DNA of 63,783 nucleotides, counting the filler, from Stramenopiles sp. TOSAG23-2 (Eukaryota), in the NCBI GenBank assembly GCA_900128395.1. It is 31 parts of 31 records of this genome, joined end to end, with 100 filler letters (N's around TTAATTAATTAA, not from the genome) between each part and the next. Parts side by side here need not be neighbours in the genome. Positions count along the whole stretch, not along the records: positions 39,270 to 41,226 come from LT652173.1; 30 more parts are not named here. The stretch is one strand, 5' to 3'. The translations under genes were made by a program, and so were the position numbers. Within the stretch, counting starts at the first letter, position 1. Every line of letters starts with the position of its first letter. Positions 4,151 through 61,736 of this stretch are shown here, one piece after another. A model generated the notes under the pieces. The model was not told the DNA's origin. It searched no databases and saw nothing but the letters and a program-made list of their open reading frames with translations.

Positions 4151-6125
4151 AGTCGTAGATAATTGATCAGCGCCTTCTGTAAATATTTCAATATTTGTAA
4201 TAGTGGCAACATTGTAGCCGTCAAAACGAGCCACATTTGAAGTCTGGCCTCCAATCAGAGTGGACAGCATAAAATTTCTTCCAACTCCACCTGGAATGGT
4301 ACATTTTATCATACCAGTCGTTGATGCGGCATCACATGGTTTATTTGGACTTTTTAATGTATATTCTGTGCCACTTAAGTGTGGATACAAACCCGTGATT
4401 CCACTTGATTTGCTGGAAGCAACATAATTGTTATAGCTAATAACATTTGCGTTTGTCAAATATACTTCAACATCCCATGTTCCTGGAATTTGTCCTGTAT
4501 TTTCGCTCAATTCCGCTTTCAAACTATCTGGAATATCTATGCTTGGCTGTATAATTTTCACATATGACGCTTCGTAATTGTATGTGGGTGGCATGTTTTG
4601 ATTAAACTTGTACATTCTAAAGCTATCGCTTTGGCATGTTTCTTGTCTTGTTAACCCTATTAGACCCGTACCATTGAAATGGCAGACGTTTGATGCGCCT
4701 CCCACTATAAAATAGTCAGGTTTTGAACTGTGCTCACTAGCTGCAACATAGCATTTTGCAACGAGGTCAGAATTTTGACTCATCGTGATGTCTGAAAATA
4801 GTCCAGTGGGTGTGGAAGATTGGGGAAAGTTAAAGGAAGTAGAATAACAACCAAGTTCAATCCATCTAGACTCTTGGTAACATAAGTCTGGCTCTACCTC
4901 ATACGATGTTTGAGAAAATGAATGTGCAGTCCAACTACCAACCCGCTTGATAAACATTCTAACATCATCATTACTAGAACTGCTTTTGCTGTGGTGATAT
5001 AATAAATTTCCTACCATGCAACGATCTCGAGATGATGATGGGTATACATTAGTATTCAATTTAAAGCTTCCCGATATTGTTTGTACAACTTGACTCTTTC
5101 CAGCATAAACTATTTTATCATCAATAAGCATTTTTCCATCTCCGATGTCGGTACCTTTAATAGTGATTTTTTCGCCTCCGACTGTTGAAACTCCGGCTGT
5201 TTGTGCATTGCCTTCAAGGCTTAATATATGAGGAGGTGCATACGAGAACATTGCTTGTTTCCTATTTCCTGGAACGGATTTATGAACCGTATTGCCCTTC
5301 TTAATATTTACGCTGATCACATGATTTCGTCCAAACCCAATAGCGGTTTGGCATGAAAGCTTTTTATTACTCTCTTCAACTACAATATTTGTGGCTGAAT
5401 ACGAAGCTCCTGTGTTGCCCGTCAAGCCCCCAACACTACTCAAAGGAGAGTATGTAATACTTATATCTCCTATATTTCCCCCTTGAAATAGTCCAAAATT
5501 TTCTCCATAAATTGTTATAGATTCGCCCCCACCGGAGCTTGATAATCGCTGGTTTGACATTTCAATTCGATCAATAAACACATCATTGACATCAATAATA
5601 GGTATTTCGAGTTGAATTATTGTTGAAAATCTAAGACAATTTGTATTTGGGAAAAATGCACAAGTGCCTTCAACTTCTGTTGCATTTAGGGTAACCATTA
5701 GGCTTTTATATTTTTCATTGTCTAAATAAATCCACTTAGAAGAGTCACCAGTAGCTTTGATTTCACAAAAGCCATTGGATTGTATATTTAAGCATCCCAT
5801 TGTCTGTATCAATCCCATAGTCTCAGATGGATTGATATTGACAGCATTGTTAGTATAATCCATAACTTCTACGGACTTGATAGTAAAATCAACACCGTTT
5901 TTAACTACATCCACATCATGCATATATATTTTACCTATGGAGTTTACTTTTACTCGACATTCCATGCCATCCCATGTATAATAATTTGCCCTTCCCATAC
6001 TTTCGCAAGTAAATTTGTTCCCAAACTGAGATATAGTGTCCCTCTCTGTAATATTAAAAACAGCGTCATTAATAGATAATGACGGTTGCTCATTTGCATT
6101 AATTAAATCTACAGTCACTTTTCCT
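4151..6125 (-). CDS. Internal fragment of a large extracellular protein with cadherin-like and IPT/TIG domains
   Basis: Open across the whole contig; cadherin-like linkers (VDLINANEQP, IIDVND) and IPT motifs (GGGESITIYGENFG, TVGGEKITIKGTDIG, CTIPGGVG). Confidence 0.75.
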
Positions 6126-7110
6126 NNNNNNNNNNNNNNNNNNNNNNNNNNNNNNNNNNNNNNNNNNNNTTAATTAATTAANNNNNNNNNNNNNNNNNNN
6201 NNNNNNNNNNNNNNNNNNNNNNNNNTAGGATAGGGGATTGTATATGTAATCGTACTTAGAGTATACAATGAGGAAGGAATATATATCATACGGATTTTCT
6301 TATATATATATATATTAATTAGTCTTTTCTTCTCTGTTACATAATTTATATATATATATATATATATCTTTGGATCACAATAGCGAGAACGATCTTACAT
6401 ACGCAGGTGTCAATCCTTTATTGTTAACTTTCGACTGTATATTCTTTAGAATATTATTATAATTATTATTGTTTTCAATATATCCAATCAACGCAAAAAT
6501 AAATTATCTGTTTTTGTCTCTGAGTATCTATATTGTTTTCGATTTTTTGATTTGTCGCACACATTATATCAACGAGTGTATAAATTCATAATTATTATAG
6601 ATATTAAAAAAAAACTTTATTTCATAATAAAAAACTTCCCGTTTTGCGGTTTGCTTATTCTTTATAAAATTAAAAAAAACTCTCCAAATTCCTGAATAGT
6701 AAGGAAGGCACATCAGCTAATCCAATGTGTTTGAACATCTATCAAAATAGAGTCTATGATTAAAAAATATCCGAATTAATAAACACTTTCTCGTAAATAT
6801 CAATCATATGTGTATAGTATCTTGCAAAAATTAGGATTGCTGAACAGAGATTTTTCAAGCATTATATGCAGATATGGATAAAAATGGAATTTCCTCACAA
6901 AGATGTTTTTTGCAACATTCTCTACTAATTATTACAGAAGAACAATTGTGATTTTATTTTATTACATTATTTATTATTATATCTGAATCATTCATTCATA
7001 TATATATATATATTACAACCGCGAGCACGCATATATTTTCGTACTAAAACAACAATAAAAGTTTTCAAACAATAACTGTAACGATTAAAGCTTCATCTTC
7101 TTGAATCATA

Positions 7111-8199
7111 ATGGACATTATAGACCCATCGATTGACCCAAAAGAGGTCGAGTTGAGAGATGTGGACAAAAAAATACCACCAGAAAAAAAAACTAGAAAG
7201 CGGAAACGACTGATCGTAGACGTAAAGATCACCTTTTGCACCCACGTCGGGTGGGATGGTATACTGGTCTTGCTTTTCTCGTTACTGATTGCTAGTCTGT
7301 TCGTATATATTACCTTTTTGTATACCAAAGGCTTTTATGCATGGCATCGGCCGTTTGTATGGGTCTTTATGGTGTTTGCAGTGCTGTACACACTGTTGAC
7401 CCTTATGTATCCATTTACATGGAAAAAAATCGCCAAGTCCTTTTCTAAAGATAAGACGGGCAGAAGAAATCAGTCGTTCGTTGAACAATTTCTCCAGTTT
7501 AAGAATATGTTTAACATCAATGGTGTCCTATTTTTATGGAAATTGTATCTTTTTGAATTTATAGAAAGTATCAACCAAATAATAAATTTTGCCACCGTTT
7601 ATTTGTGCACTCTACCGGTTGAGGTAACCACAAGTATGTGTATTTTGCTATCTACCGATGCGTTTTATCGAGCCTACCAGCTGAGACAACCCAACACGGT
7701 TGCACGTCGTGACCGTCAAGTCAAGATAGATATATGCATTGATTTTCTATGTGTAGCAGTGCCTCTCTGTGTCTTGTGGTTCGGATACAATGTTCAAATA
7801 TCCATCCCAGAAATGATTCAAATAACGGTATTGCCTACTTTGTGCCTGTTTAGTAAATTACGGTCCATATTACGAGAGATTATACGAGTGCGGACGGATA
7901 ATGCTATCCTTCGTGAACAAACGAAATTATCTAAAACAAGAAACAGAAATCGAAGAAGCATTTTTCGTACATCATCCAGTGTAAAAATCAGTAAACAACA
8001 GCAGAAGCGGGTGCCGAAAATAGTTTCCACGGGGTATTGTGTATATAATAGTTTATATGGACTGTTTTTTCTGGTGGTGGCGATAGCACATGTAGCGATG
8101 CAACCAACTGGTTGCGATAAGACCACGTGGGAAAACGGATGTGTCAATAAGATACCGTTTTGCAAGAGTTTGTTTACTCCTACTTGTAATTGTGTATCG
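7111..8199 (+). CDS. Multi-pass membrane protein, 3' truncated
   Basis: About 6-7 hydrophobic segments, then Cys-rich CVNKIPFCKSLFTPTCNC at the contig end. Confidence 0.7.
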
Positions 8200-8299
8200 N
8201 NNNNNNNNNNNNNNNNNNNNNNNNNNNNNNNNNNNNNNNNNNNTTAATTAATTAANNNNNNNNNNNNNNNNNNNNNNNNNNNNNNNNNNNNNNNNNNNN

Positions 8300-9913
8300 G
8301 ACGGGGCAACTTACCTCACGATTAACGAATGATACAAATGGAATGGTTAGTCCAATGCGAACACTAATGAACACAATATTAACCAACTCTATCAAATTCT
8401 TTGGCGGACTGGTCATGTGCTTATATACATCGTGGAGGTTATCGATTCTTGCTTTTACTAGTATTGGTCCTATTATCTTCTTAATTACACTATATGCACA
8501 GTTTTCCCGTGGTTTAAACCGGCAAATATGGTCAGCTCTTGGCGATGCCAATCAAGTTGCTACCGAGGCATTTTCAAATGTTAGAACGGTCAGAGCATGT
8601 GGACAGGATCAGACTGAAATTTCAAAATATCGGGGCTCAATTATGAATGCTCTTTCTCGAGGAATCGTGGATGCGATTGCAGCCGCTGGTACATATGCTA
8701 TAACTAATTATGTTGATTTAGGTGCATCTATTTTAATTTTATGGTATGGGGGGAACGTGGCAATGTCTGAAGATGGCAGGTTATCTGTCGGTAGCTTGAT
8801 AAGCTTTCAGTTATATTGGCAAATGATTAATAATGCGTATCAGTCATTAACCGGCGTTTTCTCATCCTTAACGCGGGCTGGTGCTGCTGCAACACGAGTA
8901 TTGACATTGATGGATAATTTACCAGATATTGATTTATTTAAAGGCGATCCGGTGACTGATGATACAGCATTTGCACTTGAATTTAAAAGCGTAAAGTTTT
9001 ACTACCAAATGAGACCAGATAATATTGTGTTAAAGGATTTTTCATTGAAAATTGGACAAGATAAAGTTGTTGCTCTGGTTGGTAGATCAGGTGGTGGAAA
9101 GAGTACGGTTGCTCACCTATTGATGCGGTAAGTATCATACAATATATATATATATATGTATATGCTCTTCGTTGGGCTAAGTCTTGTATATTATTACCAT
9201 ATCATAAAAATAATCTCTCACACATTATTATACAACATATACACGTATACATTGTTTTTCATCGTAGTTTTTATGATCCAAAATCTGGAAATATACTTTT
9301 AGATGGAAAGCCATTGCCTAGCTATAGGTTGTCTACATTCCATAAACGTGTTGGCATTGTAGCACAAGACACACAACTTTTTAATCGAACCATTGAAGAA
9401 AATATTAGCTATGGACGTGAAGAATATGCTGTTGAAGATATAATTGATGCTGCGAAGAAGGCAAATGCACATGATTTTATAATGGAATTAGATGAAGGTT
9501 ACCAAACAAAAGTTGGAGAACGTGGGGTCAGGTTAAGTGGTGGGCAAAGGCAACGATTGGCATTAGCTCGCGTTTTTTTAAGAAAACCAAAGTTATTAAT
9601 ATTAGATGAGGCTACATCGGCATTAGATGCTGAGAGTGAATCATTGGTACAAGAATCTATTGACCGTTTAATTGCCCAGGGTGGGTGCACGGTAATGTTG
9701 ATAGCACATCGCCTTTCTACTGTAATTAATGCAGATATGATTGCTGTTGTTGATAAAGGACAAATAGTGGAACATGGAAATCACAAAGAATTACTAAAAC
9801 AAGGTGGATTTTACTCCACGTTAATAAGCAAACAAAGGAATAAAGAGAATGAGAAACTAAACGTGGATGAGCTGATTGATAATATTAGGGATACTGAGGA
9901 TGATAAAAAATGA
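8300..9913 (+). CDS. ABCB-family half-size ABC transporter (TAP/ABCB9/ABCB10-like), 5' truncated; exons 8300..9127 and 9268..9913
   Basis: TMD (GQLTSRLTND), Walker A GRSGGGKST, signature LSGGQRQR, Walker B LLILDEATSALD, H-loop IAHRLST; splicing restores LMR/FYDP. Confidence 0.92.
9128..9267 (+). other. Spliceosomal intron (140 nt)
   Basis: GTAAGT donor, TAG acceptor, AT-rich; removal joins the two ABC ORFs in frame. Confidence 0.9.
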
Positions 9914-10216
9914 AAAAAAATATTAATATATACGCGAGTATATACTCGTATAATATCATAATATGTTACTCGTACACATTAATTATATATACGAGTTATA
10001 TATATATATATGATGCATAGACATAACTTAAATTTTTAAATTTACTCTCCAGGATAATCATTCCCTCATAAAAAATATACTGTGCGTACGAAAACGTACT
10101 CTCCCCAGAAAGAATACAATAACTGAGGCAATAATATCTATCTCACTAAACTGGAAGATGGACAATATTATATATATATACTCTTCGTTGAGTACTCTTC
10201 GTTAGTACTCTTCGTT

Positions 10217-10241
10217 GAGTATTAGTTTGCAGAGGTGCATT
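10217..10241 (-). repeat. 25-nt fragment of the dispersed element, next to a (TACTCTTCGTT[G]AG)x3 tandem
   Basis: GAGTATTAGTTTGCAGAGGTGCATT is identical to 41201..41225. Confidence 0.75.
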
Positions 10242-10670
10242 AGAGCTTTACTATAGTAGGATAACTTTATCNNNNNNNNNNNNNNNNNNNNNNNNNNNNN
10301 NNNNNNNNNNNNNNNTTAATTAATTAANNNNNNNNNNNNNNNNNNNNNNNNNNNNNNNNNNNNNNNNNNNNAATGGCGTCAATTTGCCAGGGAAAGAGTA
10401 AAAAAAGGAAGATTTTGTACATCACGAAAATCAAAATATATATATACGAAATATCATATGTGACCATACTATATATATATCTCACATGTGTGCGTGTATG
10501 TATATTAAATATTATACAATGATTACCATATTATATTTTGAAAATTTGAAAGCTGGAAAGCTTTTGTTTTTAAAAAAAGAGCACAAGAGAGAAGCAACAC
10601 AACTGCATAAAATAAATTTATACTATACCGAGTTTAGCCGTTTTTTGTAGGGTCCACGACAACACATCGC

Positions 10671-11192
10671 GTAACTAAAATAAGCTAATTTTACGTATTA
10701 TAATAATGATAATATACATGCTAAATTTAAGGGCATGGGCTCTTCCTCTTCCATTCTTGGTCAATTTCTCTCTGATTTCAGGTCTTTTATGCAGCCCTTT
10801 ACCTTAACCTGGTTAACCTGTACTGGTTTACCTCAATTATTATTATTATTATTATTATTATTTTTTTTCACAGAATTTATTATTTATTATTTATTCCCTG
10901 CCCTGATGTGTAGGGGTGTTAACGTTTCAAGATAACAAAGTAGAGATATACATATGGCTCAAATCGGCAAAAAACATCCCAGGTGCTGTTGTGTAGGCGT
11001 AGCTAAAATAAGCTAATTTTAATTAATAATGATATATAGATGCTAAATTTAAGGGCACTTCCTCTTCCATTATTCTTGGTCAATTTCTCTCTGATTTAGA
11101 TTTCAGGTCTTTTATGCAGCCCTTTATTATACCTTAACCTGTACTGGTTTACCTCACAATTATTATTTCACAGATTGATTATTTATTTATTA
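10671..11192 (+). repeat. Imperfect ~200-bp direct repeat pair (about 10671..10890 and 10998..11192)
   Basis: Shared blocks ctaaaataagctaatttt, atgctaaatttaagggca, ttcttggtcaatttctctctgattt, taacctgtactggtttacctca. Confidence 0.8.
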
Positions 11193-11303
11193 TCATAAAT
11201 AAAAAAAGGTGTGTGTGTGTGTGTGTATAAATATATAGAATAAACAAACAGGTTATTATAAAAGAAATAACATAAATAGATAAATATCACCCGACATCAT
11301 CGA

Positions 11304-11934
11304 ATGAAGTCGTTGAAATTAACCGTACAAAACGCTGGCTTTGGACCCGATGTTCGTTGCCGGTCGTTTAAATTAGCAGAGTCGCAATCCAAATCTAGGC
11401 AAATACGTGTCATTCGTTTTATATTAGGTTTATTGTCTTTTGTCTCATTCCGATGTTCGTTGCCGGTCGTTTAAATTAGCAGAGTCGCAATCCAAATCTA
11501 GGCAAATACGTGTCATTCGTTTTATATTAGGTTTATTGTCTTTTGTCTCATTTTGTACAGTTGCATATGATGTATATAATGGGGAAATATATATACGTTA
11601 TAAATTGATCGTACTATGTGTCGTATCGTTTATCATTAGAGCCATGTATGGAAAAGTAGCGGCAGAAGAATCGTTATTGGTGATCCAAAAATTAGGTGTA
11701 GAAATTGAGCGTTTATATTTTAGTGGTAAACGTACATTTGAATTTGTTGATATAGATACTATAGAAGATGTAATAATAAATGAAGGGATAACAAGGTGTA
11801 AAATTGTGTATTATATGGCATTTTTATTATCAACAAAGAATGATCCACTTGTTGTTTTTGAAAATTTTCCACCACGTAAAACATTAGAAACTATATGTCA
11901 CGGTACTAGAGAAGTATTAGGTCAAGGGAAATGA
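11304..11934 (+). CDS. PIGH: GPI-GlcNAc transferase subunit PIG-H, interrupted by an out-of-frame 103-bp tandem duplication (11347..11449 / 11450..11552)
   Basis: EESLLVIQKLGVEI...IEDVIINEGI...YYMAF...VVFENF matches the PIG-H family; collapsing the duplication gives one ORF from ATG 11304 (MKSLKLTVQNAGFGPDVRCRSF...). Confidence 0.8.
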
Positions 11935-12001
11935 TATATATACCCGTATTTTAATTCGAGTGTATGCATATAATGAGAAAATATGATTTACGGTATGGTG
12001 A

Positions 12002-12108
12002 GATCTTTTTCCGGGTAGTTACCGGTTGTTGTTGTATACAAACAGGATCTTTCACATCGATATAACCTCATTGTTTTCAAGCGAATCCGTCGTTGAGCGC
12101 AGTCAACA
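12002..12108 (-). repeat. Dispersed structured element, copy B
   Basis: Aligns with 41059..41160 (gatcttt.tccgg.tagttaccggttgttgtt...aacaggatctttcac) and with the core of 43791..43900. Confidence 0.8.
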
Positions 12109-12443
12109 TATTAAAAAAATAAAATATAGTTTTTAAAATAAATAAATCTCTCTCCTCTCGCATCATTTTTTATTATATATGTTTTTTTTTTTTTTTAATA
12201 TTTTTTTTAAATGTGTGTGGGCATCTCTTTTTGATGTACATACATAATTTTTTACACATACACATACTTTATCTTAAATTTTTACAAGCCATTAATCAAT
12301 TTATATCGTTTTAAACGACGGTTTAATTGATTTTTTGTCCATTNNNNNNNNNNNNNNNNNNNNNNNNNNNNNNNNNNNNNNNNNNNNTTAATTAATTAAN
12401 NNNNNNNNNNNNNNNNNNNNNNNNNNNNNNNNNNNNNNNNNNN

Positions 12444-12798
12444 AAGGGGGAATATGCAAACAAAATTTCATACAAAAACCGATAAATATGCATCAATAAA
12501 CGTCAAAGCGTCAAATCAATACTATAAAAAATTTGTTGAAACTCGTGGTGATGTGGGGGGTATGGCATCACCTACTGCAAGTAACAGTGGTGGTGGTCAG
12601 TCCAGTTTTTCAGGTGGTGGGGGTGGAGGCGGAGGATTTAGCACTAATAATAGTGGAGCAAATGTAAATAATTTAGGACGAAAAGTCCAACGACAAAAAA
12701 CTAGATTAAATTTTCTAGTAGTAGGCATTCCATTTTTGATGTTTGCTGGTTACAAATATTTTGATAATAACAGTAAAAGCAACAGGCGGCGATATTGA
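12444..12798 (+). CDS. 3' end of a hypothetical protein with a Gly-rich linker and C-terminal TM helix
   Basis: ORF open from the contig edge; GGGGGGGG tract and LNFLVVGIPFLMFAGY. Confidence 0.55.
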
Positions 12799-12983
12799 TA
12801 GAGAAGGCCAAAAAACGTGTACTGTGTATGTGTCAGGGGGATATTTTTGTCTTTTTTGTTATTTTTTTTATGCTTTTGTGTACATATATATATATATACG
12901 CGTCAATATAACGAAGATACACATGCACACACACACACTCTCTCTCTCTCTCTGTGTCCTCCCTTTCATTTTTTTTCTTTCTT

Positions 12984-14095
12984 TTACAATTCGTTCTTGT
13001 TTGATTTCAGTAATGGTAAAGTTAATAACATTTTTTCACATCGCTTATATTGATTTAAACTATCTTTAAATTTTTTTGGTATTGCATTGATGCCGTGATA
13101 TGCACCAAGTACTAAACCAATATTTGTACCACGAGAGGCATTATCACCTCCAACCATGGCATTAGCTGTTATTGCTGCCATAAAATCATCTTCATACTTT
13201 AAGATAATATACACACTCCCTGGCAATACACCTTCAGTAGGAGATGCCTTGCCAACCCTGATTGGCTCTGATTTTCCAACTTCCCAAAGTCGTGCCATTG
13301 ATGTAATTGCTAGATCATCAACAAATTCTTCTTTAAACAATTGTGAATTCATATCTGTTGCTTCCTCAAATTTAGCAATTGCAGTAGCCACCATTTTTTG
13401 CAACCAATTCGGTGATTCTTTTGTTACTGAATCAATAGATTGTCTTGGTGTCAAGTTTTTGTGAAGGATACGATGTGCAACTTTTGCAAAAAATTTAGCG
13501 CCACCTAACGCCTCCTCATTTTTATGCGTAAACATAAAACGCAAGGCTGCATCAACAATTTGCTCTTTGAACGCATAGACATTGCATTTGAGAACCCTCC
13601 AAGATTATTATGAGGCATACCTTGCCTTACTTGTTGTAATGTTGTTCTTGTCATTGTACAAACCCATGCACCCCAGTTAGTCGTAACTCTCTCTTCCCAC
13701 ATCGGTATCAATTCATGAAGATCAACAGGTGCTGTTTTTACAGCATCATCCCTACTTGATAAATACTCTAACGTCAACACATTATACAAGCCATAATCTG
13801 TTTGGTCTCCTGCTTTCATACCAGGATGATAATTACGTCGTCCCCAACCAACACCGTGTGTGCTGCCATTCATTTTTTCACCAGGTCCATATAATTTATC
13901 AATTACTTTGTTCCCATATGCTTGTTTAATCGTTTCTGCTGAATATTCATAGTGAGAACCAAGACAAAGACTGTCAGAAATCAGCGTTCCAAAATATGCG
14001 CCCTTAATTCGTTCTTCCAATTTATTATTTGCATGTACAGTAGCAGTAAAAAATAAAATAGTCCATGTTACGGATAAAAATAGTATTTGGTTCAT
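12984..14095 (-). CDS. Secreted ADP-ribosylglycohydrolase (ARH/DraG/crystallin-J1 family), frameshifted near 13570
   Basis: Signal peptide; RIKGAYFGTLISDSL, GDQTDYG, ANAMVGGDNASRG, GAYHGINAIP motifs; frame changes at ...MSMRS / KEQIVDAALRFMF. Confidence 0.8.
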
Positions 14096-14762
14096 GATAA
14101 CTTTAAAATTGTATTAAAAGTGATTTATGTGTTACTCTTATTAAAAGTAGGATAAGTAATCGAATAAATAATGAATTATTTTTCTGTGAAAGATTTTCAT
14201 GGTCAGTACCTATTTTCTTGAAATTTGTTTTTATATCTCATTTGTTCGATCGAATTTTTAGCGGCATGTGAAAAGTAATTCAACAAGTAATGTACATATG
14301 TACATAATTAGAATAATGAAAAAGCTTCTTCAAACCCACTAGAGCAACACCAGGTACATATCATTAGAAATCGCATATTTTTCATCCAATTTCATCATTT
14401 TCAACATTTTCAANNNNNNNNNNNNNNNNNNNNNNNNNNNNNNNNNNNNNNNNNNNNTTAATTAATTAANNNNNNNNNNNNNNNNNNNNNNNNNNNNNNN
14501 NNNNNNNNNNNNNTTCCAGGATTTCCTATAGATTTCACCTCCGATTTATTACTACAACAGCAGACGACAGATCAGAACATAAAAATGAATGAACATTCAT
14601 GATGATTATGATAGAAATACATCATTATAGATAGTATCTACAGATACAGAAGATATATGAATATATAAATCAGGTGTATATAATAATATATAAGACGTAC
14701 ATATAGTATACAGACATATATATATATATATACACATACGCACCCACCCACACCTACTAATC

Positions 14763-16115
14763 ATGGCAGCAGTCGTATCATCTGACGTAAATATTACTAC
14801 ATTATCACAATTTTTTATTTTATCACCACGTGGCGATACTATTATTAAACGTGAATATAGACATGATGTGCCACAAAATTCACCAGAAATATTTTTCCGT
14901 AAAATAAAATGTTGGGAAGGTGATCCACCACCATGCTTTAAAGAAAACGATGTGAATTATTTGTTTATCAAGCAAAATGGTTTGTGCATTGTTTGTACGA
15001 CAGTATTTAATGTTAGCCCATCCTTTATTTTGGAATTATTAATACGCATTGGGAATGTTATTAAAGATTATTGTGGTGTATTAAATGAGGAAGCAATACG
15101 TAAAAATTTTATTTTAGTATATGAATTGCTAGATGAAATGCTTGATTATGGATACCCACAATGCACATCAACGGAAGGTTTGAAAAATTATATACACAAT
15201 GAACCAATACAAGTTGCAAAAGTACAAAGTACAAAACGAAGTGGCTTATCAAAATCCAAAACAAAACATAGTAGTGCCGTGCATAAGCCTATCTCGGTAT
15301 CTAGAAAACGTGATAAAAATCATCGTAATGAAATATTTGTTGATATATTAGAACGTTTAACTGTAACATTTAATAGCACAGGGTATATAATTGCATCTGA
15401 AATTGATGGGTGTATACAAATGAAAAGTTATTTAAGTGGTAATCCACAATTACGCTTGGCATTAAATGAAGATTTACAAATTGGGAAAGGGAAAGATAAT
15501 TATGGTAGTGTCGTTTTAGACGATGCAAATTTTCATCCATGTGCTGATTTAAGTGAATTCGATTCGACAAGGATGTTATTGATCAGTCCCCCAGAAGGTG
15601 AATTTGTAGTGATGAATTATCGTTTAAGCGGTGAATTCCATGCACCATTCCGTGTATTTCCATTTGTTGAAGAAACTTCTCAATTTCAATTGGAAATGGT
15701 TGTCAAAGTACGTGCAGATATTGATAAGAAAAATCATGGTTCAAATGTAGTTGTGAAATTTCATGTGCCAAAATCCTCAGGCACCGTGTCATTAAATTTA
15801 GATAAAAGTAAAGATGGAGAAATGAAAAATCAAATGGCAGAGTATAAAGAGAAAGATAAAGAAGTGACATGGACGATTAAAAAATTTCAAGGTCAAAGTG
15901 AACATACCCTTGTAACTAGGATTACATTAACGTCAGCAAGTACCAGCACTACTAGGAAAGAACTTGGTCCTATACGTTTAAATTTTGAAGTACCAATGTA
16001 CAATGCAAGTCATTTACAAGTGAGGTATTTACGTATAAATGCAGATTCGAAATATAAATCATTTAAATGGGTACGTTATGTAACACAAGCAGCAAGTTAT
16101 GTATGCCGGGTTTAA
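14763..16115 (+). CDS. AP4M1: AP-4 complex subunit mu
   Basis: SQFFILSPRGDTII, NFILVYELLDEMLDYGYPQ, NEIFVDILERL, IQMKSYLSGNPQLRLALNEDL, KWVRYVTQ; complete 450 aa. Confidence 0.92.
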   Translation: MAAVVSSDVNITTLSQFFILSPRGDTIIKREYRHDVPQNSPEIFFRKIKCWEGDPPPCFKENDVNYLFIKQNGLCIVCTTVFNVSPSFILELLIRIGNVIKDYCGVLNEEAIRKNFILVYELLDEMLDYGYPQCTSTEGLKNYIHNEPIQVAKVQSTKRSGLSKSKTKHSSAVHKPISVSRKRDKNHRNEIFVDILERLTVTFNSTGYIIASEIDGCIQMKSYLSGNPQLRLALNEDLQIGKGKDNYGSVVLDDANFHPCADLSEFDSTRMLLISPPEGEFVVMNYRLSGEFHAPFRVFPFVEETSQFQLEMVVKVRADIDKKNHGSNVVVKFHVPKSSGTVSLNLDKSKDGEMKNQMAEYKEKDKEVTWTIKKFQGQSEHTLVTRITLTSASTSTTRKELGPIRLNFEVPMYNASHLQVRYLRINADSKYKSFKWVRYVTQAASYVCRV

Positions 16116-34379: not shown

Positions 34380-35360
34380 GACGGCTCAATAAATAAATAT
34401 ATTCACTTCTCGAATGTATACTCTGTTTTTGTGTAATTTTATAATTTGCATCATTTAATTTAAATTCGAATTTTAACCTGTTGAATACCAGAATAGAAAG
34501 CCGAAAGTGCGAAAGTGCGAAAGAAGAAATAATAAAAAAGGAAGAAAGAACGAAGGATTAATTTTTGCCATGCCGGGCATGGCTATTATTAATTTAAGGA
34601 AACAGTCAAAAATCTGAGAGAAGACGACTTTTCTGGCCCTAAATTTAAATTAAAATGCTGAAGGGACAAAACACAAATATTTCCAGTATACAACTAGTGT
34701 AAAAAACATTCTATTTTCAATTTTATATCCACGCCAGGTCTTGGCATTTTTAATTAAAAATTTATACAAAATTTTAAACTACCAGATATGATATCAAAAT
34801 TATCAAAAAATATTTATGATGTGTGGTTAAAATCTAAAGTTTTTATATTTAAAATATATGATATTTAATAATTTTATCAAGATACTTCCCGTGGTAAATA
34901 ATATGCTCAATATTTAAATATCCCCCTGTAATCATCACAAACTTATAATCTGGCCTGGGTCGCGCTGGTGCTCCACGAGACTGCTGTAAAACACCCGCAC
35001 GGTTTGCTGCGCCTGCCGGTCCTGCACTGAGTCTTTGCTTCTCTTTCGTCAGGNNNNNNNNNNNNNNNNNNNNNNNNNNNNNNNNNNNNNNNNNNNNTTA
35101 ATTAATTAANNNNNNNNNNNNNNNNNNNNNNNNNNNNNNNNNNNNNNNNNNNNTGACCTATCAAATATATCAAACACTACAAATCTACTGAGTATATGAA
35201 AAGGACTACATTAAGTATAAATATGATAGGAAATGAAAAACAGAAAATGTGGCAGAAAAACACATTTTTCAAGAGTAAAATGTTGTAAGGCCTGTGTCCA
35301 TGCTAATTTCTAAATGCTATTTCCATATATTAAAAACACTCTATAGGGGACAATTACCAT

Positions 35361-39169: not shown

Positions 39170-39590
39170 NNNNNNNNNNNNNNNNNNNNNNNNNNNNNNN
39201 NNNNNNNNNNNNNTTAATTAATTAANNNNNNNNNNNNNNNNNNNNNNNNNNNNNNNNNNNNNNNNNNNNATGAATTACTAAAATTTAGGTTGAAAATGTT
39301 GATTTTAATGAAATTTGAGGGAAAATATGCGAGATGTAATGGTATCCATATGTTACCTTATAATGCCTATAGGGCCACCACACATTTCAAGAGGCCAGCT
39401 GGCCAGAAGAAAAAAAAAGACGAAGAAGTATTTTTTACTAATAATACTGTAATACTACTATTACTTATTTATTATAAATATGAATGAGGATTAATTTTTA
39501 GACGACATCTAATAAATAATTAATCAGAACAGAAAACATGCAAATATATACAAAGCCATATTCTTTTGTGACGGGACGTAATTGTACAAG

Positions 39591-40652: not shown

Positions 40653-41058
40653 ATGTGAAGATGAGACATTTTACGTACGACGTACGAAGTATTCGTATTT
40701 AATATATTTTACTCTCGTATTTTTAAAATTTCTTGTGTTTTATTACCGCGGGGTTGTTGTACGTGTTTTACGATGTCGTATTTCGATGGGGGGAAATATA
40801 AAATTTTGTAGTGTTACGTATTATAAAAAATAATATATTTTACGAAATCGTATATTTAATTATTTATTAAAATATATAATATTATATATCATATCATACG
40901 AAGTATAATCATTAAAATAATAAATGAGTGCACGAGTATTTAAAATCATTTTTTTATTTGAGATGTTAACTTCCGGGAGTAAAAGAAATTTAATATGCAT
41001 ATAATTACATACGAGTAAGAGAAAATTATATATTATGATATATTATTGATATAAATAT

Positions 41059-41226
41059 GATCTTTATCCGGATAGTTACCGGTTGTTGTTCACAACAGGA
41101 TCTTTCACTTTGACAGCCTCACCGCTATCGAGTGAACCCGACGTCCAGCGCGTTCAACGTTCGAACATGTTGGAAGGATAGAAACCTACTTGTGCTTGTA
41201 GAGTATTAGTTTGCAGAGGTGCATTT
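41059..41226 (-). repeat. Dispersed structured element, copy A (longest; cut by the contig end)
   Basis: Shares its 3' module with 12002..12108, its core with 43791..43900 and a 25-mer with 10217..10241. Confidence 0.82.
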
Positions 41227-43283: not shown

Positions 43284-43790
43284 NNNNNNNNNNNNNNNNN
43301 NNNNNNNNNNNNNNNNNNNNNNNNNNNTTAATTAATTAANNNNNNNNNNNNNNNNNNNNNNNNNNNNNNNNNNNNNNNNNNNNCTGATCCAAAACAATTC
43401 ACGTAATATTTAAATATTTTGAGAGATATATATTTTAAAGAATATGTATATGATCTCGGTTAAATTTTACGAAGTAAGTTTTATTAACTAATATATAATA
43501 TATGATATAGTGAGATAGATATCATATTATTTGTTGATATTCTTTCTTCTGCTGGAGAGTATGATATGCATATTTGATATACAAATATATCATGACAATA
43601 TACAAGATCATAGGACAATTATCATGAGTAAATTAAAAAATACGACGTCGTAAGTTTTAAACGCACATTAATTATACACACAAATATTTTTTTACGAAGA
43701 GTATAAAAAAATGTACACACACATCATTTTAAAATATTTAAACTCTATCAATTGGTACGCGTATATGATATTTTTATAAATAATTATAAT

Positions 43791-43900
43791 GACTTCCCGG
43801 TTCCCGGTGTCCCGTGGTACCACCAATCGACAGCCTCACCGTTTTCGAATGAACCCGGCGTCCAGCCCTTTCAACAAACCGACATGGAACTCTCTTGTTT
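43791..43900 (-). repeat. Dispersed structured element, copy C (variant 3' module)
   Basis: gacagcctcaccg.t.tcga.tgaacccg.cgtccagc.c.ttcaac core shared with 41114..41158. Confidence 0.8.
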
Positions 43901-45437: not shown

Positions 45438-46075
45438 CTGGCCATTCAGATGTTGCACTGAAAATTGCCACTAGTGTTGAATATCCAAGCTGGGGTTATA
45501 TGCTTCCTAGTTCAATACACCCAGCAGGTCAAGGAGAAGGAACGCTTTGGGAACGGTGGAAAGGAGATAAACATACAGGTTTTGGTTCTAGAAATCATAT
45601 CATGTTGGGTGGCTTTGACGGTCCATTTTTTTATGGAAATTTAGCAGGAATCCAAAACGATGGAATAGCATGGTCTAATATTTTAATTGCACCAACAGTT
45701 GCTGGCGATCTTTCAGGTGTGACAGCTTCTGTAGCTACTATACGTGGATTAATTAGCGTAAAATGGAATGTACTGGAAGACGCCGTTGGTAAATTTCTTA
45801 TTAATGTCACTGTACCACATGGAACAACTGGTGTAATACACCTGCCTATTTTACAAGAAAAGAATAATAACATTACAGCAAATGATGTAAATGTATTGGA
45901 AGGCGGAATTTGTTTTTGGAAAGCAAAAGTTGGATATATAAGTGAAAGTGTCCCAGGTATTGATATGGCTAAATCTGGTTCAAATCTTGCAGGAAAATTT
46001 ATTGAAGTGATTATTCAATCTGGTACATATGAATTTGATCTTACTGTGGTGGCGAAAGATTATTTAAAAATTTGA
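45438..46075 (+). CDS. Alpha-L-rhamnosidase (GH78) C-terminal fragment
   Basis: YPSWGYML, TLWERW, SRNHIMLGG, ATIRGLISVKW, SGTYEF. Confidence 0.85.
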
Positions 46076-46753
46076 ATACTACAGACATATACATATTATA
46101 TACTCTGCGCTTGCCAGAGTCTGCGCTTGCCAGAGTACATATATTATATGTGTATATGTGTGTGTGTGAGTATAAAGAAAAAAAATTAAGAAAATGAAAA
46201 TAAAATAAATTTAAAAAAAATACGAAAAAATATTTCTGGAGATTATTTGTTGATTGGCACACATTGTGTGTTGTAAAACATTTAACTAAATATAATTCTG
46301 TATAAACGAGAGGTAAATATGTATATATAGATTTAAGATTAAAAATCCACCCCCCCCAATATCTTCTTACATTTTTTTTCTAATGATATTCCTATGCTAT
46401 ATTAATACCGGTATATACCGGTATTAATATAGCATAGGAATATCATTAGAAAAAAAATGTAAGAAGATATGGGGGGGGGTGGATTTTTAATCTTAAATCT
46501 ATATATACATATTTACCTCTCGTTTATACAGAATTATATTTAGTTAAATGTTTTACAACACACAATGTGTGCCAATCAACAAATAATCTCCAGAAATATT
46601 TTTTCGTATTTTTTTTAAATTTATTTTATTTTCATTTTCTTAATTTTTTTTCTTTATACTCACACACACACATATACACATATAATATATGTACTCTGGC
46701 AAGCGCAGACTCTGGCAAGCGCAGAGTATATAATATGTATATGTCTGTAGTAT

Positions 46754-47391
46754 TCAAATTTTTAAATAATCTTTCGCCACCACAGTAAGATCAAATTCAT
46801 ATGTACCAGATTGAATAATCACTTCAATAAATTTTCCTGCAAGATTTGAACCAGATTTAGCCATATCAATACCTGGGACACTTTCACTTATATATCCAAC
46901 TTTTGCTTTCCAAAAACAAATTCCGCCTTCCAATACATTTACATCATTTGCTGTAATGTTATTATTCTTTTCTTGTAAAATAGGCAGGTGTATTACACCA
47001 GTTGTTCCATGTGGTACAGTGACATTAATAAGAAATTTACCAACGGCGTCTTCCAGTACATTCCATTTTACGCTAATTAATCCACGTATAGTAGCTACAG
47101 AAGCTGTCACACCTGAAAGATCGCCAGCAACTGTTGGTGCAATTAAAATATTAGACCATGCTATTCCATCGTTTTGGATTCCTGCTAAATTTCCATAAAA
47201 AAATGGACCGTCAAAGCCACCCAACATGATATGATTTCTAGAACCAAAACCTGTATGTTTATCTCCTTTCCACCGTTCCCAAAGCGTTCCTTCTCCTTGA
47301 CCTGCTGGGTGTATTGAACTAGGAAGCATATAACCCCAGCTTGGATATTCAACACTAGTGGCAATTTTCAGTGCAACATCTGAATGGCTAT
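46754..47391 (-). CDS. Inverted identical copy of the GH78 fragment
   Basis: Identical translation; part of the whole-contig palindrome. Confidence 0.5.
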
Positions 47392-57642: not shown

Positions 57643-58186
57643 NNNNNNNNNNNNNNNNNNNNNNNNNNNNNNNNNNNNNNNNNNNNTTAATTAATTAANN
57701 NNNNNNNNNNNNNNNNNNNNNNNNNNNNNNNNNNNNNNNNNNATGTAGATATAGTAGTCGTATATATTCTGATAAAATAAAAGAAGCAAAAAAAAAAAAA
57801 ATGGTGTGTTTTGTTGTGTATAATATTACACACATTTTATTAAAATTAATTTTTAAAATAATAAAAATTGATGGTTAAAATCTATACGAGTACGAAGTAA
57901 AAGTTTTATATACGAAGTAATAATTTTACACTTCTCGTGTTAAGTAATATGCTCAATACTCAATCTGACACTGGTGTCTGGCATTGAAGCTGTACGATGC
58001 GACACCTGGTCAAGATGATTATACGTATCAGAAAGCTGGATTTGGTGCGGTGTTAATTGCCGTGAGTGTTTTATGCGTATCATATGGTGTTAGGGTTGGG
58101 AAGTATTGTCGTAAAGTACGCCATGTTTGAGAGAGAGGGTCATGAAGTGTTTGAAACAAGATTTTTGGCTAGATGTGCGAATGGCA

Positions 58187-59077: not shown

Positions 59078-59844
59078 TATTGTATTTTATTATTGTGGGA
59101 AATTTGAGACAATTATTATTACTATTATTTAGAACAATTTAGGTAATAGTATACACTGTATTTTGAATGAGACAGAAGTAGTTTTACATATATATATATA
59201 TGTATGTATGTAAATGTATAGAGGTGCATCATTCACCAACCATTTTTATATCGTAAACAATAATAATTTTCAAAAAACATACTAACATAATAATCGCGAA
59301 AAAAAATAAAAATAACAATAATATAATGTGCATGCTAATCATGTTAGTAGCTATACTTAAGACTATACGGTGTACCATCCTATCCGCATTTTTTGATAAA
59401 ATAATTTTGAGAATTAGAATAGGCAGAATTAGAATGGGCTTACCAAGTAAAAAAATGTACAATGCTGTATTAGTAATAGTACTAGCTCTACTGTATACTA
59501 CTGGTATACCACCAACCACACAGAAGAGTTTTGTTGTAAATTACAGATGTGATTTGAATTTGTATGTTTATGACGTATAATACTTTGAAATTGAAAAAAA
59601 AATTAAAGTGATAGATACACCAACATATATTCAGTATATTAAATAATCGTTAGAACAAGCAAGAACGAAATGAGTAGCTTTGCAAATCGNNNNNNNNNNN
59701 NNNNNNNNNNNNNNNNNNNNNNNNNNNNNNNNNTTAATTAATTAANNNNNNNNNNNNNNNNNNNNNNNNNNNNNNNNNNNNNNNNNNNNTCTCTAAAATA
59801 TCATCGTTTTCTACTTCTTCTTTCTCCACCACCTCTTCTTCCAA

Positions 59845-61736
59845 TACTTTCTCGGATAAACGCTTTTTCACTGCAATAGCTGGAAATGGTAATAGTGGCT
59901 TTAATGTCGATAAATATGAAGAGAAATTAAAACAGTTGCAGGAAAAAGGTACACCACCAGAAACAATAGCACATTTTTTGCTTTCTAAAGACGTTAGAAA
60001 TATAACAAGGTTAGGTTTATGGCAAACGCCTAATATTATTGGCAATAGCTATTATATACAAACAGTTGAAAATTTGTTAAATAAGTACTGGGATACAAAT
60101 GATATAAACCATATATTATTAGCGCAGCGACTTGCATATGTAATAACAAATGAAAATGTAAATAATGATCGCCATGGTGCTATTATTACTAGTAGTCAAG
60201 AATTTGATCCGATAATATATGATCGAATAATTGATTTTTATTTTACAACAGGTAATGTACATGAAAGTAGAAATTTATTTCAGAAATTAATTGAGAAAGA
60301 TAATGGTATTAATTTGAATTTAGATCGCGTCTTTCAATATCAAAATGGTATCAACAATTTAAATAACTTATTCAAAGATCTGAAAGCAACAGAGCAAGAG
60401 GAAGGGAGTGTTAATGAGCCATCCAAAATTATGCAAATTACTGTTGTGAATGATGAAAAGTTAATTAATGAGACGGTACATTCCTTCATGGTTGGTATTA
60501 ATATATGTGAAACAAAAGATGAAATCCAACAATTGTTTTTAAGTACGATGGAACTAGTGAAGAAAATTGAGAATCATGGAGCTTTATCCAGTGAAAATGC
60601 AATAGCATGTTTTTATATGACAAAACATGCAATTAATTTACTTGGCGAAGATATCGATATGATTGAGATATATGATTTATATTTATATTTCTTATCATCT
60701 TTTTATTACCATCACAATAGTAGTCTTCATAGTGTTGCTGCTGATGGTGGTGGTGAGAATCCTCCTCATGATGGTACAAGCAATAATTTAAATATAAATC
60801 AAATGGTCAACGATGTAAATAATAAACCTAATAAAAAAGTCATGCAAGATATATTTAAAAAACTTGAGGTTTGTGTTAAAAAATCATTAGATGAAATGGA
60901 AAAATCTTCAAATAAAAAAGAATTTTTAGCTCGAAGAAATGCATTGTTAGATGCAAATAAAAAGAAATCAAGAAAATCATTGCTATCACGATTATTAGAT
61001 ATAACAAAAGGTGATCTCGATCGCAGTAATAACATGTCAAATATAACAATTACAGCTGACATCCCGGCAAAGAATAATGTATTAAATGAAGATATTTTTA
61101 CCGTACTGTCCCAAAATGCTCCATACTTTGTGTCTGCAACGCTTCAAGAGCTTGAAGCAAGAGGTTTACAGCCAAATAAAACTACAGTTCAACACATGTT
61201 AAATCTTTTACATACAATGTACTTACATGAAAAACAGCATATTGCCATGAACAAGACAGGATCAATAATAAATACGGATATTTCTGCGTTGCGTAAAGAA
61301 TTTCACAAGGATTACGATAATTTTGTTGATGACAATAGGAAAGAATTTGTATCCTCATTCCTCGAGAAAATAGAACGGTATTCATTATCGGAAGAATTTA
61401 ATAAAGAAGAATATACGTTTAATTCTGGAAAACTAGTTTCACAAAAGGTGCAAGAATTATTGCATGAATTTTGTAAACAGATTCCGGGTGTAGCATGTAA
61501 ATCTAGAGGTTTCAATCTAGAGAATGCTGAGAAAACCGTTAAATATTGTCATTCTAGAAAAGAAGAACTCCTTGAATTTCTATGGAATGAACATGCGGAG
61601 ACGTTAATTCAATCAATATGGAATAAGAATATGGCAAAGAATGCTGATATTGTTGAAAAGTTTTTCCCGCAATATAAGATTTTGGAAGAAGAGGTGGTGG
61701 AGAAAGAAGAAGTAGAAAACGATGATATTTTAGAAC
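59845..61736 (+). CDS. Hypothetical alpha-helical protein fragment
   Basis: ORF of more than 600 aa open to the contig end; the first ~55 bp of the contig is an inverted copy of its last ~55 bp. Confidence 0.65.

Follow-up and report, generated by a model that had tools for sequence, protein, structure and literature searches.

The locus at 41059-41226 carries a short, GC-rich and hairpin-rich block that recurs in the 3' flanks of unrelated genes of an AT-rich protist. It raises the question of what kind of element this block belongs to, and whether its hairpins are the reason for its conservation. The window, that is the whole analysed stretch of 63,783 nt from Stramenopiles sp. TOSAG23-2, is made of 31 short contigs (about 1.95 kb each) with N spacers between them, and the genome has about 31% GC. 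A sequence-only reading had described three copies (A, B and C) and proposed that selection on a minus-strand RNA or ssDNA fold maintains them. Our analysis implies another origin: A, B and C are quite probably dead, 5'-truncated copies of an abundant LINE-like retroposon of the RLE type, and not structured RNA.

Copies of the repeat in the window

The three copies lie on three different contigs of the window, and their similarity, as had been claimed, is real and far past chance: by BLASTN, A and B are 76.4% identical over 106 columns (E 2.7e-15) and A and C 87.2% over 47 columns (E 1.7e-11). They are also GC-richer than their flanks, with 49% vs 23% for the coding part of A, 42% vs 20% for B and 56% vs 23% for C. 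C is homologous to the others only over 43828-43879, and A runs off the end of its contig. Six fragments of the repeat were found in the 62-kb window, at least three of them beyond A, B and C; positions called reference nt are those of a 1429-nt copy, L040:

41059..41178, + strand: coding part of copy A, with the final 40 codons of the repeat ORF (DLYPDSYRLLFTTGSFTLTASPLSSEPDVQRVQRSNMLEG), from translation
41179..41181, + strand: TAG stop of the repeat ORF in copy A, from translation; the context is GGA TAG AAACC in most copies
41182..41226, + strand: start of the 3' UTR in copy A, 45 nt up to the contig end
12000..12107, + strand: copy B (reference nt 1158-1259), a fragment that is old and divergent
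43828..43879, + strand: copy C, 52 nt from inside the element (reference nt 1212-1263), with the peptide ..ASPFSNEPGVQPFQQ..
10214..10270, + strand: fragment F, which lies at a contig end and comes from the 3' UTR (reference about nt 1296-1352)
57869..57967, - strand: fragment D, final ~100 nt of the 3' UTR, interrupted by a small insertion
about 34820..34913, - strand: fragment E, the final ~90 nt of the 3' UTR in divergent form, ..TTAGATTTTAACCACA

Copy A is 5'-truncated at 41059, which corresponds to reference nt 1160, and its peptide reads …DLYPDSYRLLFTTGSFTLTASPLSSEPDVQRVQR..EG, then stop. It is 88.6% identical to L040 over 167 columns (blastn) and 86% identical to residues 424-459 of the repeat protein P0121 (tblastn). 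Element sequence from upstream of 41059 is present in runs X1, X2 and X9 as loose ends 'before' this position, in contigs of other copies, and in runs X2, X9 and X17 the loose ends 'behind' 41225 carry on into 3' UTR sequence (AGAGCTTTACTATAGTAGGA...). Copy B shares its subfamily characters with L016, L004 and L031; its frame is still open, its peptide has diverged and its 3' UTR is unrecognisable. The GC-rich 40 nt to the left of copy C (43791-43827) lie outside the repeat and match only the orthologous locus L043. Both B and C are 3'-eroded as well as 5'-truncated. Fragment F is 96.5% identical to the L039 and L037 copies over 57 columns, fragment E reaches 72-76% over 64-70 columns, and fragment D ends in the terminal motif of the family, TAGATTTTAACCATCA.

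Copies A and F both lie at contig ends.

Hairpins and searches for RNA families

The hairpin strings quoted in the sequence-only reading were indeed found on the minus strand, and hairpins can be drawn in most copies. One would argue that they belong to an undescribed minus-strand family of structured ncRNA, ribozyme or omega-RNA-like type with hairpins under selection. We evaluated this with an alignment of 29 copies (28 distinct rows), the four proposed hairpins and 500 shuffles. The paired cells amount to 90.9% against a shuffled expectation of 90.3%, the covariation score is 0.138 (shuffles average 0.132, and 70 of the 500 reach the score), and 3 pairs are altered on both sides against 2.2 in shuffles (189/500). 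Thus the idea that compensatory change keeps the pairing is not supported. The C-G to T-A double change reported for the tetraloop hairpin occurs in one of the 28 rows, that of copy B, and in the 'upstream hairpin' the pair in the middle is standard in one row, again B alone; the apparent compensatory changes arise because of this one old copy. Folded as a single sequence, copy A is modestly better than shuffles (z -2.2 on the minus strand, -2.1 on the plus strand), but B (z -0.3 and -0.7) and C (-0.9 and -0.3) are not better than theirs.

The sequence is present in contigs of poly(A) RNA libraries, which would suit an ncRNA, these being unstranded Logan contigs that report presence and not strand or ends. 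However, the block lies inside an ORF of the opposite strand, which is under purifying selection and has relatives at the protein level, and the copies are cut at arbitrary points through the proposed structure. The block is not recognised as a tRNA or a known RNA family. The whole window gave no Rfam match at gathering score; permissive Rfam scans around A and B had best E-values of 0.29 to 0.83 with bits far under the gathering scores, the sub-threshold noise being freshwater-1, GAIT and DdR6, and ARAGORN found neither tRNA nor tmRNA in the window. Since the copies show no covariation beyond shuffles and are decayed fragments of a protein-coding region, the claim of selection on an RNA or ssDNA fold falls, and we give a structured RNA family next to no credence. 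What the copies contain, namely final codons, stop and 3' UTR, belongs to an ORF on the + strand, opposite to the strand proposed for the RNA.

Other classes of short mobile elements were also compared. The sequence-only reading had seen a loose resemblance to IS200/IS605 ends and TnpB/Fanzor omega-RNAs, which likewise have a hairpin-rich stretch toward one end of a mobile element. This resemblance does not hold: here the stretch codes on the opposite strand and the element ends ~150 nt downstream of the hairpins, no RuvC-type TnpB/Fanzor or HUH protein was found by Pfam or by fold, the ORF having no Pfam match and an R2-like fold, and covariation is missing. With SINEs and MITEs the copies share short length (50-400 nt), high number and intergenic dispersal, but they are pieces of a longer coding element, nested by 5' truncation and with coding sequence of the parent ORF in their 5' parts, and have no tRNA-like head; a SINE Pol III head (tRNA-, 7SL- or 5S-like) was not found in the window by ARAGORN and Rfam. 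A Helitron 3' end (CTRR with a preceding hairpin) is absent, the ends reading ..ACCATCA or ..TTTAACAC and their last 40 nt being free of hairpins.

Truncation pattern and abundance

A pattern scan of marine metagenome contigs returned 47 further loci of the repeat. Their 5' starts are spread from reference nt 164 to 1218 (blastn, all 47 loci), and tblastn with P0121 matched 42 of the 47 and copy A of the window, with starts from residue 92 to 442. The 3' side of the copies is mostly uniform: they end with ..TAGATTTTAACCATCA or ..CTTTACACTTTAACAC and pass directly into unrelated flank. In all, 23 of 25 matches to the two terminal motifs close the 3' UTR of a copy, which is ~150 nt long in the element, and are followed by unrelated AT-rich DNA. 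Five or six copies (B, C/L043, L004/L031, L014) are exceptions to this common end and have no 3' UTR. Of the ends and target-site duplications, which the sequence-only reading had suggested to define, the 3' end is sharp in most copies. Target-site duplications were undetected: the longest word shared by the flanks averages 6.0 (17 copies), and the mean of the mismatched controls is 6.16 (272 pairs), in a test weakened by AT-rich flanks and fuzzy 5' junctions.

The copy number is high. In run X1 the summed contig depth over 41052-41226 spans 30,426 to 95,393, that over RPB3 being 6.7, and in run X2 it spans 5,276 to 15,063, with 20.5 over RPB3; in three of four runs (X1, X2, X17) it climbs toward the 3' end. 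The repeat was found in runs from 12 studies and consists of several diverged subfamilies, each with many near-identical members, and the copies look alike because of recent descent from few source elements and because of the shared coding end.

No poly(A) or simple-repeat 3' tail was found at the copy ends; tails of such kind are also absent from some LINE clades. No LTR was seen, the copy ends read had no terminal inverted repeats, and no other repeat family with the same 3' terminus was found in the 369 kb examined. Site-specific insertion is unsupported, as the flanks are mutually unrelated AT-rich intergenic DNA beside different genes. L040 was also considered as a full-length, nuclease-only element of ~1.4 kb with a 413-aa ORF, and this was rejected, since the ORF extends upstream in other copies.

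The encoded protein

In 50 copies the block reads ..CRDLQAKVIKTAAFCHNRALRDLYP(D/N)SY(R/Q)LLFTTGS.T..ASP.S.EPDVQRVQR...EG, then stop, and the longest copies have 462 (L040) and 316 (L017) open codons. The frame is under purifying selection, as dN/dS is 0.21 between L040 and L017 over 313 codons (dN 0.103, dS 0.501) and 0.27-0.45 in divergent pairs over the last 84-96 codons. The diversity by codon position is flat in the last 40 codons (0.129, 0.110, 0.124), and with no third-position signal there, the coding reading of this part draws on frame, homology and distant relatives. Over the element as a whole, coding and UTR parts have comparable diversity (0.08-0.16). HMMER found 104 relatives, down to ~25-39% identity and all of them fragments of 46-243 aa; two of these proteins, P0148 and P0152, have a C-terminal ..Y..LF.. 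tail and a terminal G in common with the repeat protein. The reading frame extends past the 5' end of the longest DNA copy by at least about 135 residues, which come from P0228, and 7 other proteins share the first 58 residues of P0128. No protein longer than P0121 was found among the relatives.

A reverse transcriptase (RT) domain was not found by Pfam in P0121, P0228, P0230, P0128 or the 106 aligned members, the pieces being all partial; no RT is seen, presumably because no full-length copy was recovered. Neither the repeat protein nor its distant relatives have a family match in Pfam, PHROGs or NCBIfam. Searches of the PDB by sequence and with two profiles returned no R2 protein and only one chance row (E 0.54), and a scan of viral contigs with P0121 gave 11 pattern matches, none of them confirmed. 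In the ESM Atlas the nearest clusters consist of eukaryotic 'hypothetical proteins' without a name (356-418 aa); a zf-RVT cluster also appeared, at 0.89, which is under the trust level. The first model of the whole protein was poor (pLDDT 58.9), and Foldseek found no match with it.

The link to R2 comes from a mid-confidence model of the C-terminal 270 residues and from fold scores. With this model, the best two of 48,161 chains are R2 proteins, namely 9dou_A (R2Tg; Z 10.1, rmsd 3.8, 185 aligned, chain residues 1177-1388) and 8ibw_C (R2Bm; Z 9.6, rmsd 3.8, 181 aligned). The next chains, with Z of 7.0 or below, are generic PD-(D/E)XK nucleases, Prp8 and Hjc. Foldseek also ranks R2 chains 1 and 2 (E 0.013 and 0.044, probability 0.99 and 0.94), with E-values above 0.001. 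In alignment A4 we recognised by eye the motifs H(D/N), (T/A)D, Y(V/F)D.T, K..KY and (Q/H/L)G.F, and their order is the same as that of the R2 endonuclease motifs RH, PD, D/E, K..KY and RG.W in the part of PMC4838377 that lists them.

A Cys/His knuckle and a PD-(D/E)XK fold of the RLE type in the C-terminal part are shared with R2, R4, NeSL, HERO, CRE and Utopia. The repeat protein differs from R2 in a Cys/His spacing of C..H..C...C and not CCHC, in an insert of ~50 residues between the second acidic motif and K..KY, in a tail of ~100 residues past the nuclease, in having no RT found so far and in the lack of a sequence-level match to R2 or to a Pfam model. Judged by fold and motif order, the C-terminal part is most like the R2 zinc-knuckle and RLE module and would be homologous to it. 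The repeat is thus predicted to encode an endonuclease of the restriction-like type.

Placement between genes

The earlier view that the family is dispersed, comes from a mobile element and lies in the 3' flanks of unrelated genes agrees with our data on ORF-defined intergenic regions. Those with a copy are convergent in 14 cases, tandem in 5 and divergent in none (0/19), and those without a copy are convergent in 16, tandem in 16 and divergent in 23 (Fisher p 0.001). The orientation of the copies to the neighbouring gene differs between A and B on the one side and C on the other. Locus C is 97/100 identical to its orthologue L043 over 43776-43875, against 117/150 in the intergenic DNA just upstream; conservation is as high in other AT-poor windows of the locus, and the windows of low identity are indel-rich. 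RNA contigs of RPB3 from two studies end near 40847, short of copy A, which is a weak hint.

Discussion

Our data point to a retroposon whose remains are scattered between genes. The conserved GC-richer block is the 3' end of the protein-coding region of the repeat, on the + strand. We suppose that the zinc-knuckle and PD-(D/E)XK module of R2 type would nick the target, and that the RNA of the element would be copied into it from the 3' end by target-primed reverse transcription, although no RT domain was recovered. If this copying often aborts, copies with a common 3' end and varied internal starts would result, and the hairpins would be incidental features of the element sequence. That the copies persist chiefly between gene 3' ends may be because an insertion there is presumably least harmful. 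The 5'-truncated copies with a common 3' end, and the fact that no LTR was seen, are likewise in agreement with RLE LINEs. A contrasting feature is the insertion at many unrelated, AT-rich intergenic sites: RLE LINEs are mostly target-specific, as described in the relevant portion of PMC4640811.

It could be that the same retroposon carries an additional RNA function, the end of its ORF and the start of its 3' UTR doubling as a + strand cis handle to which the RT would bind when copying begins, like the 3' protein-binding motif of R2. The R2 protein is bound by RNA motifs of the 3' UTR, according to the section of PMC4838377 devoted to them. The diversity of the element is also lowest at two places, the core (0.080, a value partly forced by the search pattern) and the 50 nt with which the 3' UTR begins (0.087, unforced), against 0.14-0.16 in neighbouring parts. 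Moreover, the last 40 codons have no third-position excess, and the consensus fold of the 3' UTR contains one subfamily-level G-C to A-U exchange (11 vs 8 sequences). However, this only covarying pair is one evolutionary event, the plus-strand folds of B and C are no better than shuffles, and the differences in diversity are small among copies which are not independent. Such a handle is unlikely.

Adoption of the truncated tails by the host, as terminator, polyadenylation or mRNA-stability modules of the 3' flank and in the manner of SIDER elements in Leishmania 3' UTRs, would account for the skew towards convergent regions and for the identity of locus C with its orthologue. The same skew is expected from purifying selection against promoter insertions in a compact genome, though, and the equal conservation of other AT-poor windows, the end of the RPB3 contigs short of A, the differing orientation to the neighbour gene and the arbitrary truncation points all argue against it, so that we regard this explanation as quite improbable. 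Still less probable is a scenario with no transposon, in which a multicopy host gene encodes an R2-like nuclease and many partial pseudogenes of it arose by retroposition or by segmental or ectopic recombination. It would agree with the purifying selection on the ORF and with the failure to find an RT domain, target-site duplications or a poly(A) tail. Yet it must explain a depth hundreds- to thousands-fold over a single-copy gene, at least 50 copies that begin at arbitrary 5' points, share one sharp 3' end and lie in unrelated flanks, and several diverged subfamilies of near-identical members. Moreover, the closest folds are C-terminal modules of R2 retrotransposons, matched past the nuclease core to 185 residues. 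One further account, in which the family differs from an ordinary autonomous LINE, has two variants. The repeat could be an RT-less or split RLE element which is not site-specific and has its RT supplied elsewhere, or its tails could be host-adopted as 3'-end modules between convergent genes. The lack of divergent placements, the conservation at locus C and the 104 relatives without RT would fit, and we consider this account rather improbable.

The truncated RLE-type retroposon, which we prefer, has parallels in other protists. SIDER of Leishmania and RIME/NARTc are short degenerate LINE remnants in trypanosomatid 3' UTRs, and their parent LINEs are of the APE type (ingi/L1Tc). Our copies are likewise short, dead, LINE-derived pieces in gene 3' flanks of a compact protist genome, but they are simple 5' truncations and not an internally deleted non-autonomous family. 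The parent here is of the RLE type, and no regulatory role was seen for the copies.

These findings form a useful negative, as a block which is rich in GC and hairpins and dispersed through an AT-rich genome can look like a new structured RNA and yet be the coding tail of a retroposon. The repeat family explains the breaks of the assembly into ~2-kb contigs at copy sites. For the biology of the organism, they reveal in a widespread uncultured AT-rich marine protist a very abundant repeat family which, having no match in Pfam, PHROGs or NCBIfam, is apparently unannotated. Its protein is linked by fold to the R2-type endonuclease module. The repeat seems to insert at dispersed sites, unlike most RLE LINEs, and it accumulates between the 3' ends of genes.

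Results

The three GC-richer blocks A (41059-41226), B (12002-12108) and C (43791-43900) are truly alike: A and B agree at 76.4% over 106 columns (E 2.7e-15) and A and C at 87.2% over 47 (E 1.7e-11), the GC content is 49%, 42% and 56%, respectively, against 20-23% in the flanks, and the hairpin strings quoted in the sequence-only reading are indeed present. Our data imply that the blocks are, very probably, decaying 5'-truncated copies of a LINE-like retroposon that is abundant and encodes a protein with an R2-type endonuclease module. The earlier proposal of a minus-strand structured RNA does not hold, since covariation across 29 copies stays at the level of shuffled alignments and the block is coding on the plus strand.

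A second contig carries the last 28 nt of A again at its end (10214-10241), which first indicated that A belongs to a longer repeat, one at which the assembly breaks. A 33-letter degenerate pattern fitting A, B and C was searched for in marine metagenome contigs and gave 47 matching stretches. When these copies were lined up, the likeness reached well past the originally proposed block on one side, and on the other nearly every copy had a break-off point of its own. In the plus orientation of the window it is the left (5') boundary that varies, and the right side runs on to a single sharp end. One subfamily closes with ..TAGATTTTAACCATCA and another with ..CTTTACACTTTAACAC; these terminal motifs were matched 25 times, and 23 of the matches close a copy, with unrelated AT-rich DNA beyond. 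The longest copy (L040, 1,429 nt) found all 47 loci by blastn, with 5' starts at nt 164-1218, and its protein, P0121, found 42 of the 47 loci and copy A by tblastn, with starts anywhere in residues 92-442. Because the pattern corresponds to nt 1216-1250 of the L040 copy, shorter copies are invisible to the pattern scan; with these included, the window holds six fragments in 62 kb. The common 3' end is not universal: by blastn, B, C with its orthologue L043, and the metagenome loci L004/L031 and L014 have no recognisable 3' UTR.

Parts of copies A and C and further fragments in the window
41059-41178, plus strand, coding part of copy A, translation DLYPDSYRLLFTTGSFTLTASPLSSEPDVQRVQRSNMLEG
41179-41181, plus strand, stop codon TAG of copy A
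41182-41226, plus strand, first 45 nt of the 3' UTR of copy A, the rest being cut off by the contig end
43828-43879, plus strand, copy C, a 52-nt internal piece only
57869-57967, minus strand, last ~100 nt of the element
about 34820-34913, minus strand, last ~90 nt of the element
10214-10270, plus strand, mid-UTR piece at a contig end

Two copies lie head-to-head, inverted, with 13 nt between (L036:2264-2552), and in L040:1-52 the last ~37 nt of the 3' end are duplicated in tandem just after the first. Small insertions of 10-35 nt with TACGAGTA-, CGTACG- or ACTTCGTA-like words interrupt the 3' UTR at 57885-57919 (minus strand) and in L013, L018, L026, L027 and L032, at sites that differ between copies; they may represent a mini-insertion family in its own right or else a signature of repair. 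Three tandem ~14-nt units (GTACTCTTCGTTGA-like, 10176-10213) stand directly upstream of the fragment at 10214-10270. Fragment C is directly preceded on its 5' side by a very GC-rich stretch of 40 nt that contains a palindrome (..CCCGGTTCCCGGTGTCCCGTGGTACCACC.., 43791-43827, matching L043:1098-1142). The stretch is 100% identical over a 45-nt query in L043, has no other match in the 369 kb searched, and may represent untemplated or foreign DNA at a 5' junction.

A long ORF passes straight through the block (462 codons in L040 and 316 in L017, stop to stop), and translation of the block in the 50 copies gives ..CRDLQAKVIKTAAFCHNRALRDLYP(D/N)SY(R/Q)LLFTTGS.T..ASP.S.EPDVQRVQR...EG, followed by a stop. 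In copy B the frame is still open, though diverged. The ratio dN/dS is 0.21 for the two longest copies (dN 0.103, dS 0.501, 313 codons) and 0.27-0.45 in divergent pairs compared over their final 84-96 codons. Relatives numbered 104 in a full HMMER search against 1.84 billion representatives, many with only 25-39% identity; two of them, P0148 and P0152, reach the C-terminus and have the ..Y..LF.. tail and the terminal G in common with the repeat protein. In the last 40 codons the diversity among copies is flat by codon position (0.129, 0.110, 0.124), and along the whole element it is alike in coding and UTR parts (0.08-0.16), a pattern that mostly neutral decay of the copies since their insertion would produce. 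Thus a local third-position signal is absent, and the coding reading of the block itself is based on frame, homology and distant relatives.

The "bulged tetraloop hairpin" is the opposite-strand reading of the codons TCA CCG CTA TCG AGT GAA (S P L S S E). Four hairpins were evaluated in 29 copies (28 distinct rows) against 500 shuffles: pairing held at 90.9% of positions (shuffles 90.3%), covariation scored 0.138 against 0.132 (matched by 70 of 500 shuffles), and two-sided pair changes numbered 3 against 2.2 expected (matched by 189 of 500). Slid controls score much lower, as is expected because the structure was derived from the same sequences. The compensatory change claimed for the tetraloop hairpin comes down to a double change in a single row, B; the upstream hairpin is paired in B as described, but its central pair is unpaired in 27 of the 28 rows, B being the sole exception. 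L016, L004 and L031 share an older subfamily with B. The truncation points of the copies fall arbitrarily inside the proposed structure. In the entire window no Rfam family attained its gathering score, permissive Rfam scans around A and B gave only noise, and ARAGORN found no tRNA. In the consensus fold of the 3' UTR, one G-C to A-U exchange separates two subfamilies (11 against 8 sequences), which amounts to a single event and gives no more than a hint.

The repeat protein has no family match in Pfam, PHROG or NCBIfam, and sequence and profile searches of the PDB with it gave nothing. The whole-length model is poor (pLDDT 58.9). When a mid-confidence model of the C-terminal 270 residues was compared with 48,161 representative PDB chains, R2 retrotransposon proteins took the first two places: 9dou_A (residues 1177-1388; Z 10.1, rmsd 3.8 Å, 185 residues aligned) and 8ibw_C (residues 901-1107; Z 9.6, rmsd 3.8 Å, 181 residues aligned). 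Below them came generic PD-(D/E)XK nucleases, Prp8 and Holliday-junction resolvases with Z of 7.0 or less. Foldseek independently ranked the R2 chains first and second, with weak E-values (0.013 and 0.044). Read by eye, the alignment of distant members has a Cys/His cluster, G.CP...H.G...GGRCL..C, and after it H(D/N), (T/A)D, Y(V/F)D.T, K..KY (KNGKY, KLRKY) and (Q/H/L)G.F; this by-eye order is the same as that of the R2 endonuclease motifs CCHC, RH, PD, D/E, K..KY and RG.W described in PMC4838377.

The possibility that the L040 copy is a complete ~1.4-kb nuclease-only element was rejected, the ORF running on upstream in other copies. In the protein P0128, 58 residues upstream of the L040 boundary are found again in seven other proteins (67-90% identity), and P0228 extends the ORF by about 135 residues, L040 beginning at its residue 136; these upstream residues put the predicted ORF at at least about 560 codons. 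Pfam detected no reverse transcriptase in the recovered pieces of the ORF, whose 5' part lies outside them. All database relatives are of at most 243 aa, and a search for proteins longer than P0121 was empty.

For abundance, public contigs were aligned to the contig of RPB3, the gene adjoining copy A.

Depth summed over 41052-41226 (contig depth, not copy number) and depth of RPB3 in four public runs
X1, DNA: 30,426 / 40,058 / 95,393; RPB3 6.7
X2, DNA: 5,276 / 9,453 / 15,063; RPB3 20.5
X17, RNA library: 602-1,975; RPB3 20.9
X9, RNA library: 208-342; RPB3 8.8

The sequence of copy A is very high-copy, and its representation climbs toward the 3' end in three of the four runs. Contigs extending before 41059 hold upstream element sequence and those extending behind 41225 the remainder of the 3' UTR, as one would expect were A just one of many truncated copies. 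The RPB3 contig carries two further short repeats of very high copy number (39270-39335 and 40920-41051), with a summed depth of ~9,900 in X1 against 5-7 for single-copy sequence, and high in X2 too; the latter includes ..ACGAGTAAGAG.., and kindred AATGAGTAAGAATTAAT / ATTAATTCTTACTCATT units flank many metagenome copies.

Discussion

The placement of the blocks in the 3' flanks of unrelated genes extends to the wider set. With ORFs of at least 150 aa as crude gene proxies, and with the window (contigs artificially joined) and L034, L031 and L043 (second of same or orthologous pairs) omitted, 19 intergenic regions with a copy comprised 14 convergent, 5 tandem and 0 divergent ones, against 16, 16 and 23 among the 55 without (convergent against the rest, Fisher p 0.001). 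The simplest explanation is selection against promoter insertions in a compact genome; targeting of copies to 3' ends could also be the cause. In two independent poly(A)/oligo-dT libraries (X9, X17), of two studies, the RNA contigs that cover RPB3 end at 40847-40848, ~195 nt past the stop codon and 210 nt short of A, which suggests an RPB3 3' UTR of ~195 nt (40653-40848) and is a weak hint that A lies outside the mRNA. Locus C and L043 are identical at 97 of 100 positions, against 117 of 150 in the adjoining AT-rich intergenic DNA; the poorly conserved windows there are rich in indels, and other windows are as conserved as C.

The nearest relatives of this RPB3 (97%, 87%, 83%, 64% and 61% identity) are only metagenome proteins, named ones begin at ~36-41% and are mostly stramenopiles, and its contig is present in marine or seawater DNA and poly(A) RNA runs of 12 studies. 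Therefore, the source is a widespread, uncultured, AT-rich marine protist. The 31 contigs of the 63,783-base window are short (1,947-1,975 bp), sorted by length, with GC of 27-38% and spacers of N/TTAATTAATTAA; one has an internal N gap. In two of them (45438-47391 and 59790-61736) the 40 nt at one end are a near-perfect reverse complement of the 40 nt at the other, which looks like palindromic chimeric contigs rather than biology; such chimeras are expected in amplified single-cell DNA. A G/T-rich run (..GTGTGGTGTGTGGGGGGGGTGTGGTGGGGTGGCCGGA) closing one contig at 49404-49443 could be telomere-like or an artefact.

The truncation pattern together with the R2-type module suggests that the retroposon would be copied from its 3' end by target-primed reverse transcription. 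Target-site duplications were not found (the longest word common to both flanks averaged 6.0 against 6.16 in controls, n=17), nor was a poly(A) or simple-repeat tail at the copy ends. The family, without a match in Pfam, PHROGs and NCBIfam, would be a new member within the LINE-like elements with a restriction-like endonuclease. Among these, most of which are target-specific (abstract of PMC4640811), it is mildly unusual in that its insertion is dispersed and not site-specific; the absence of a tail repeat is a second mildly unusual trait.
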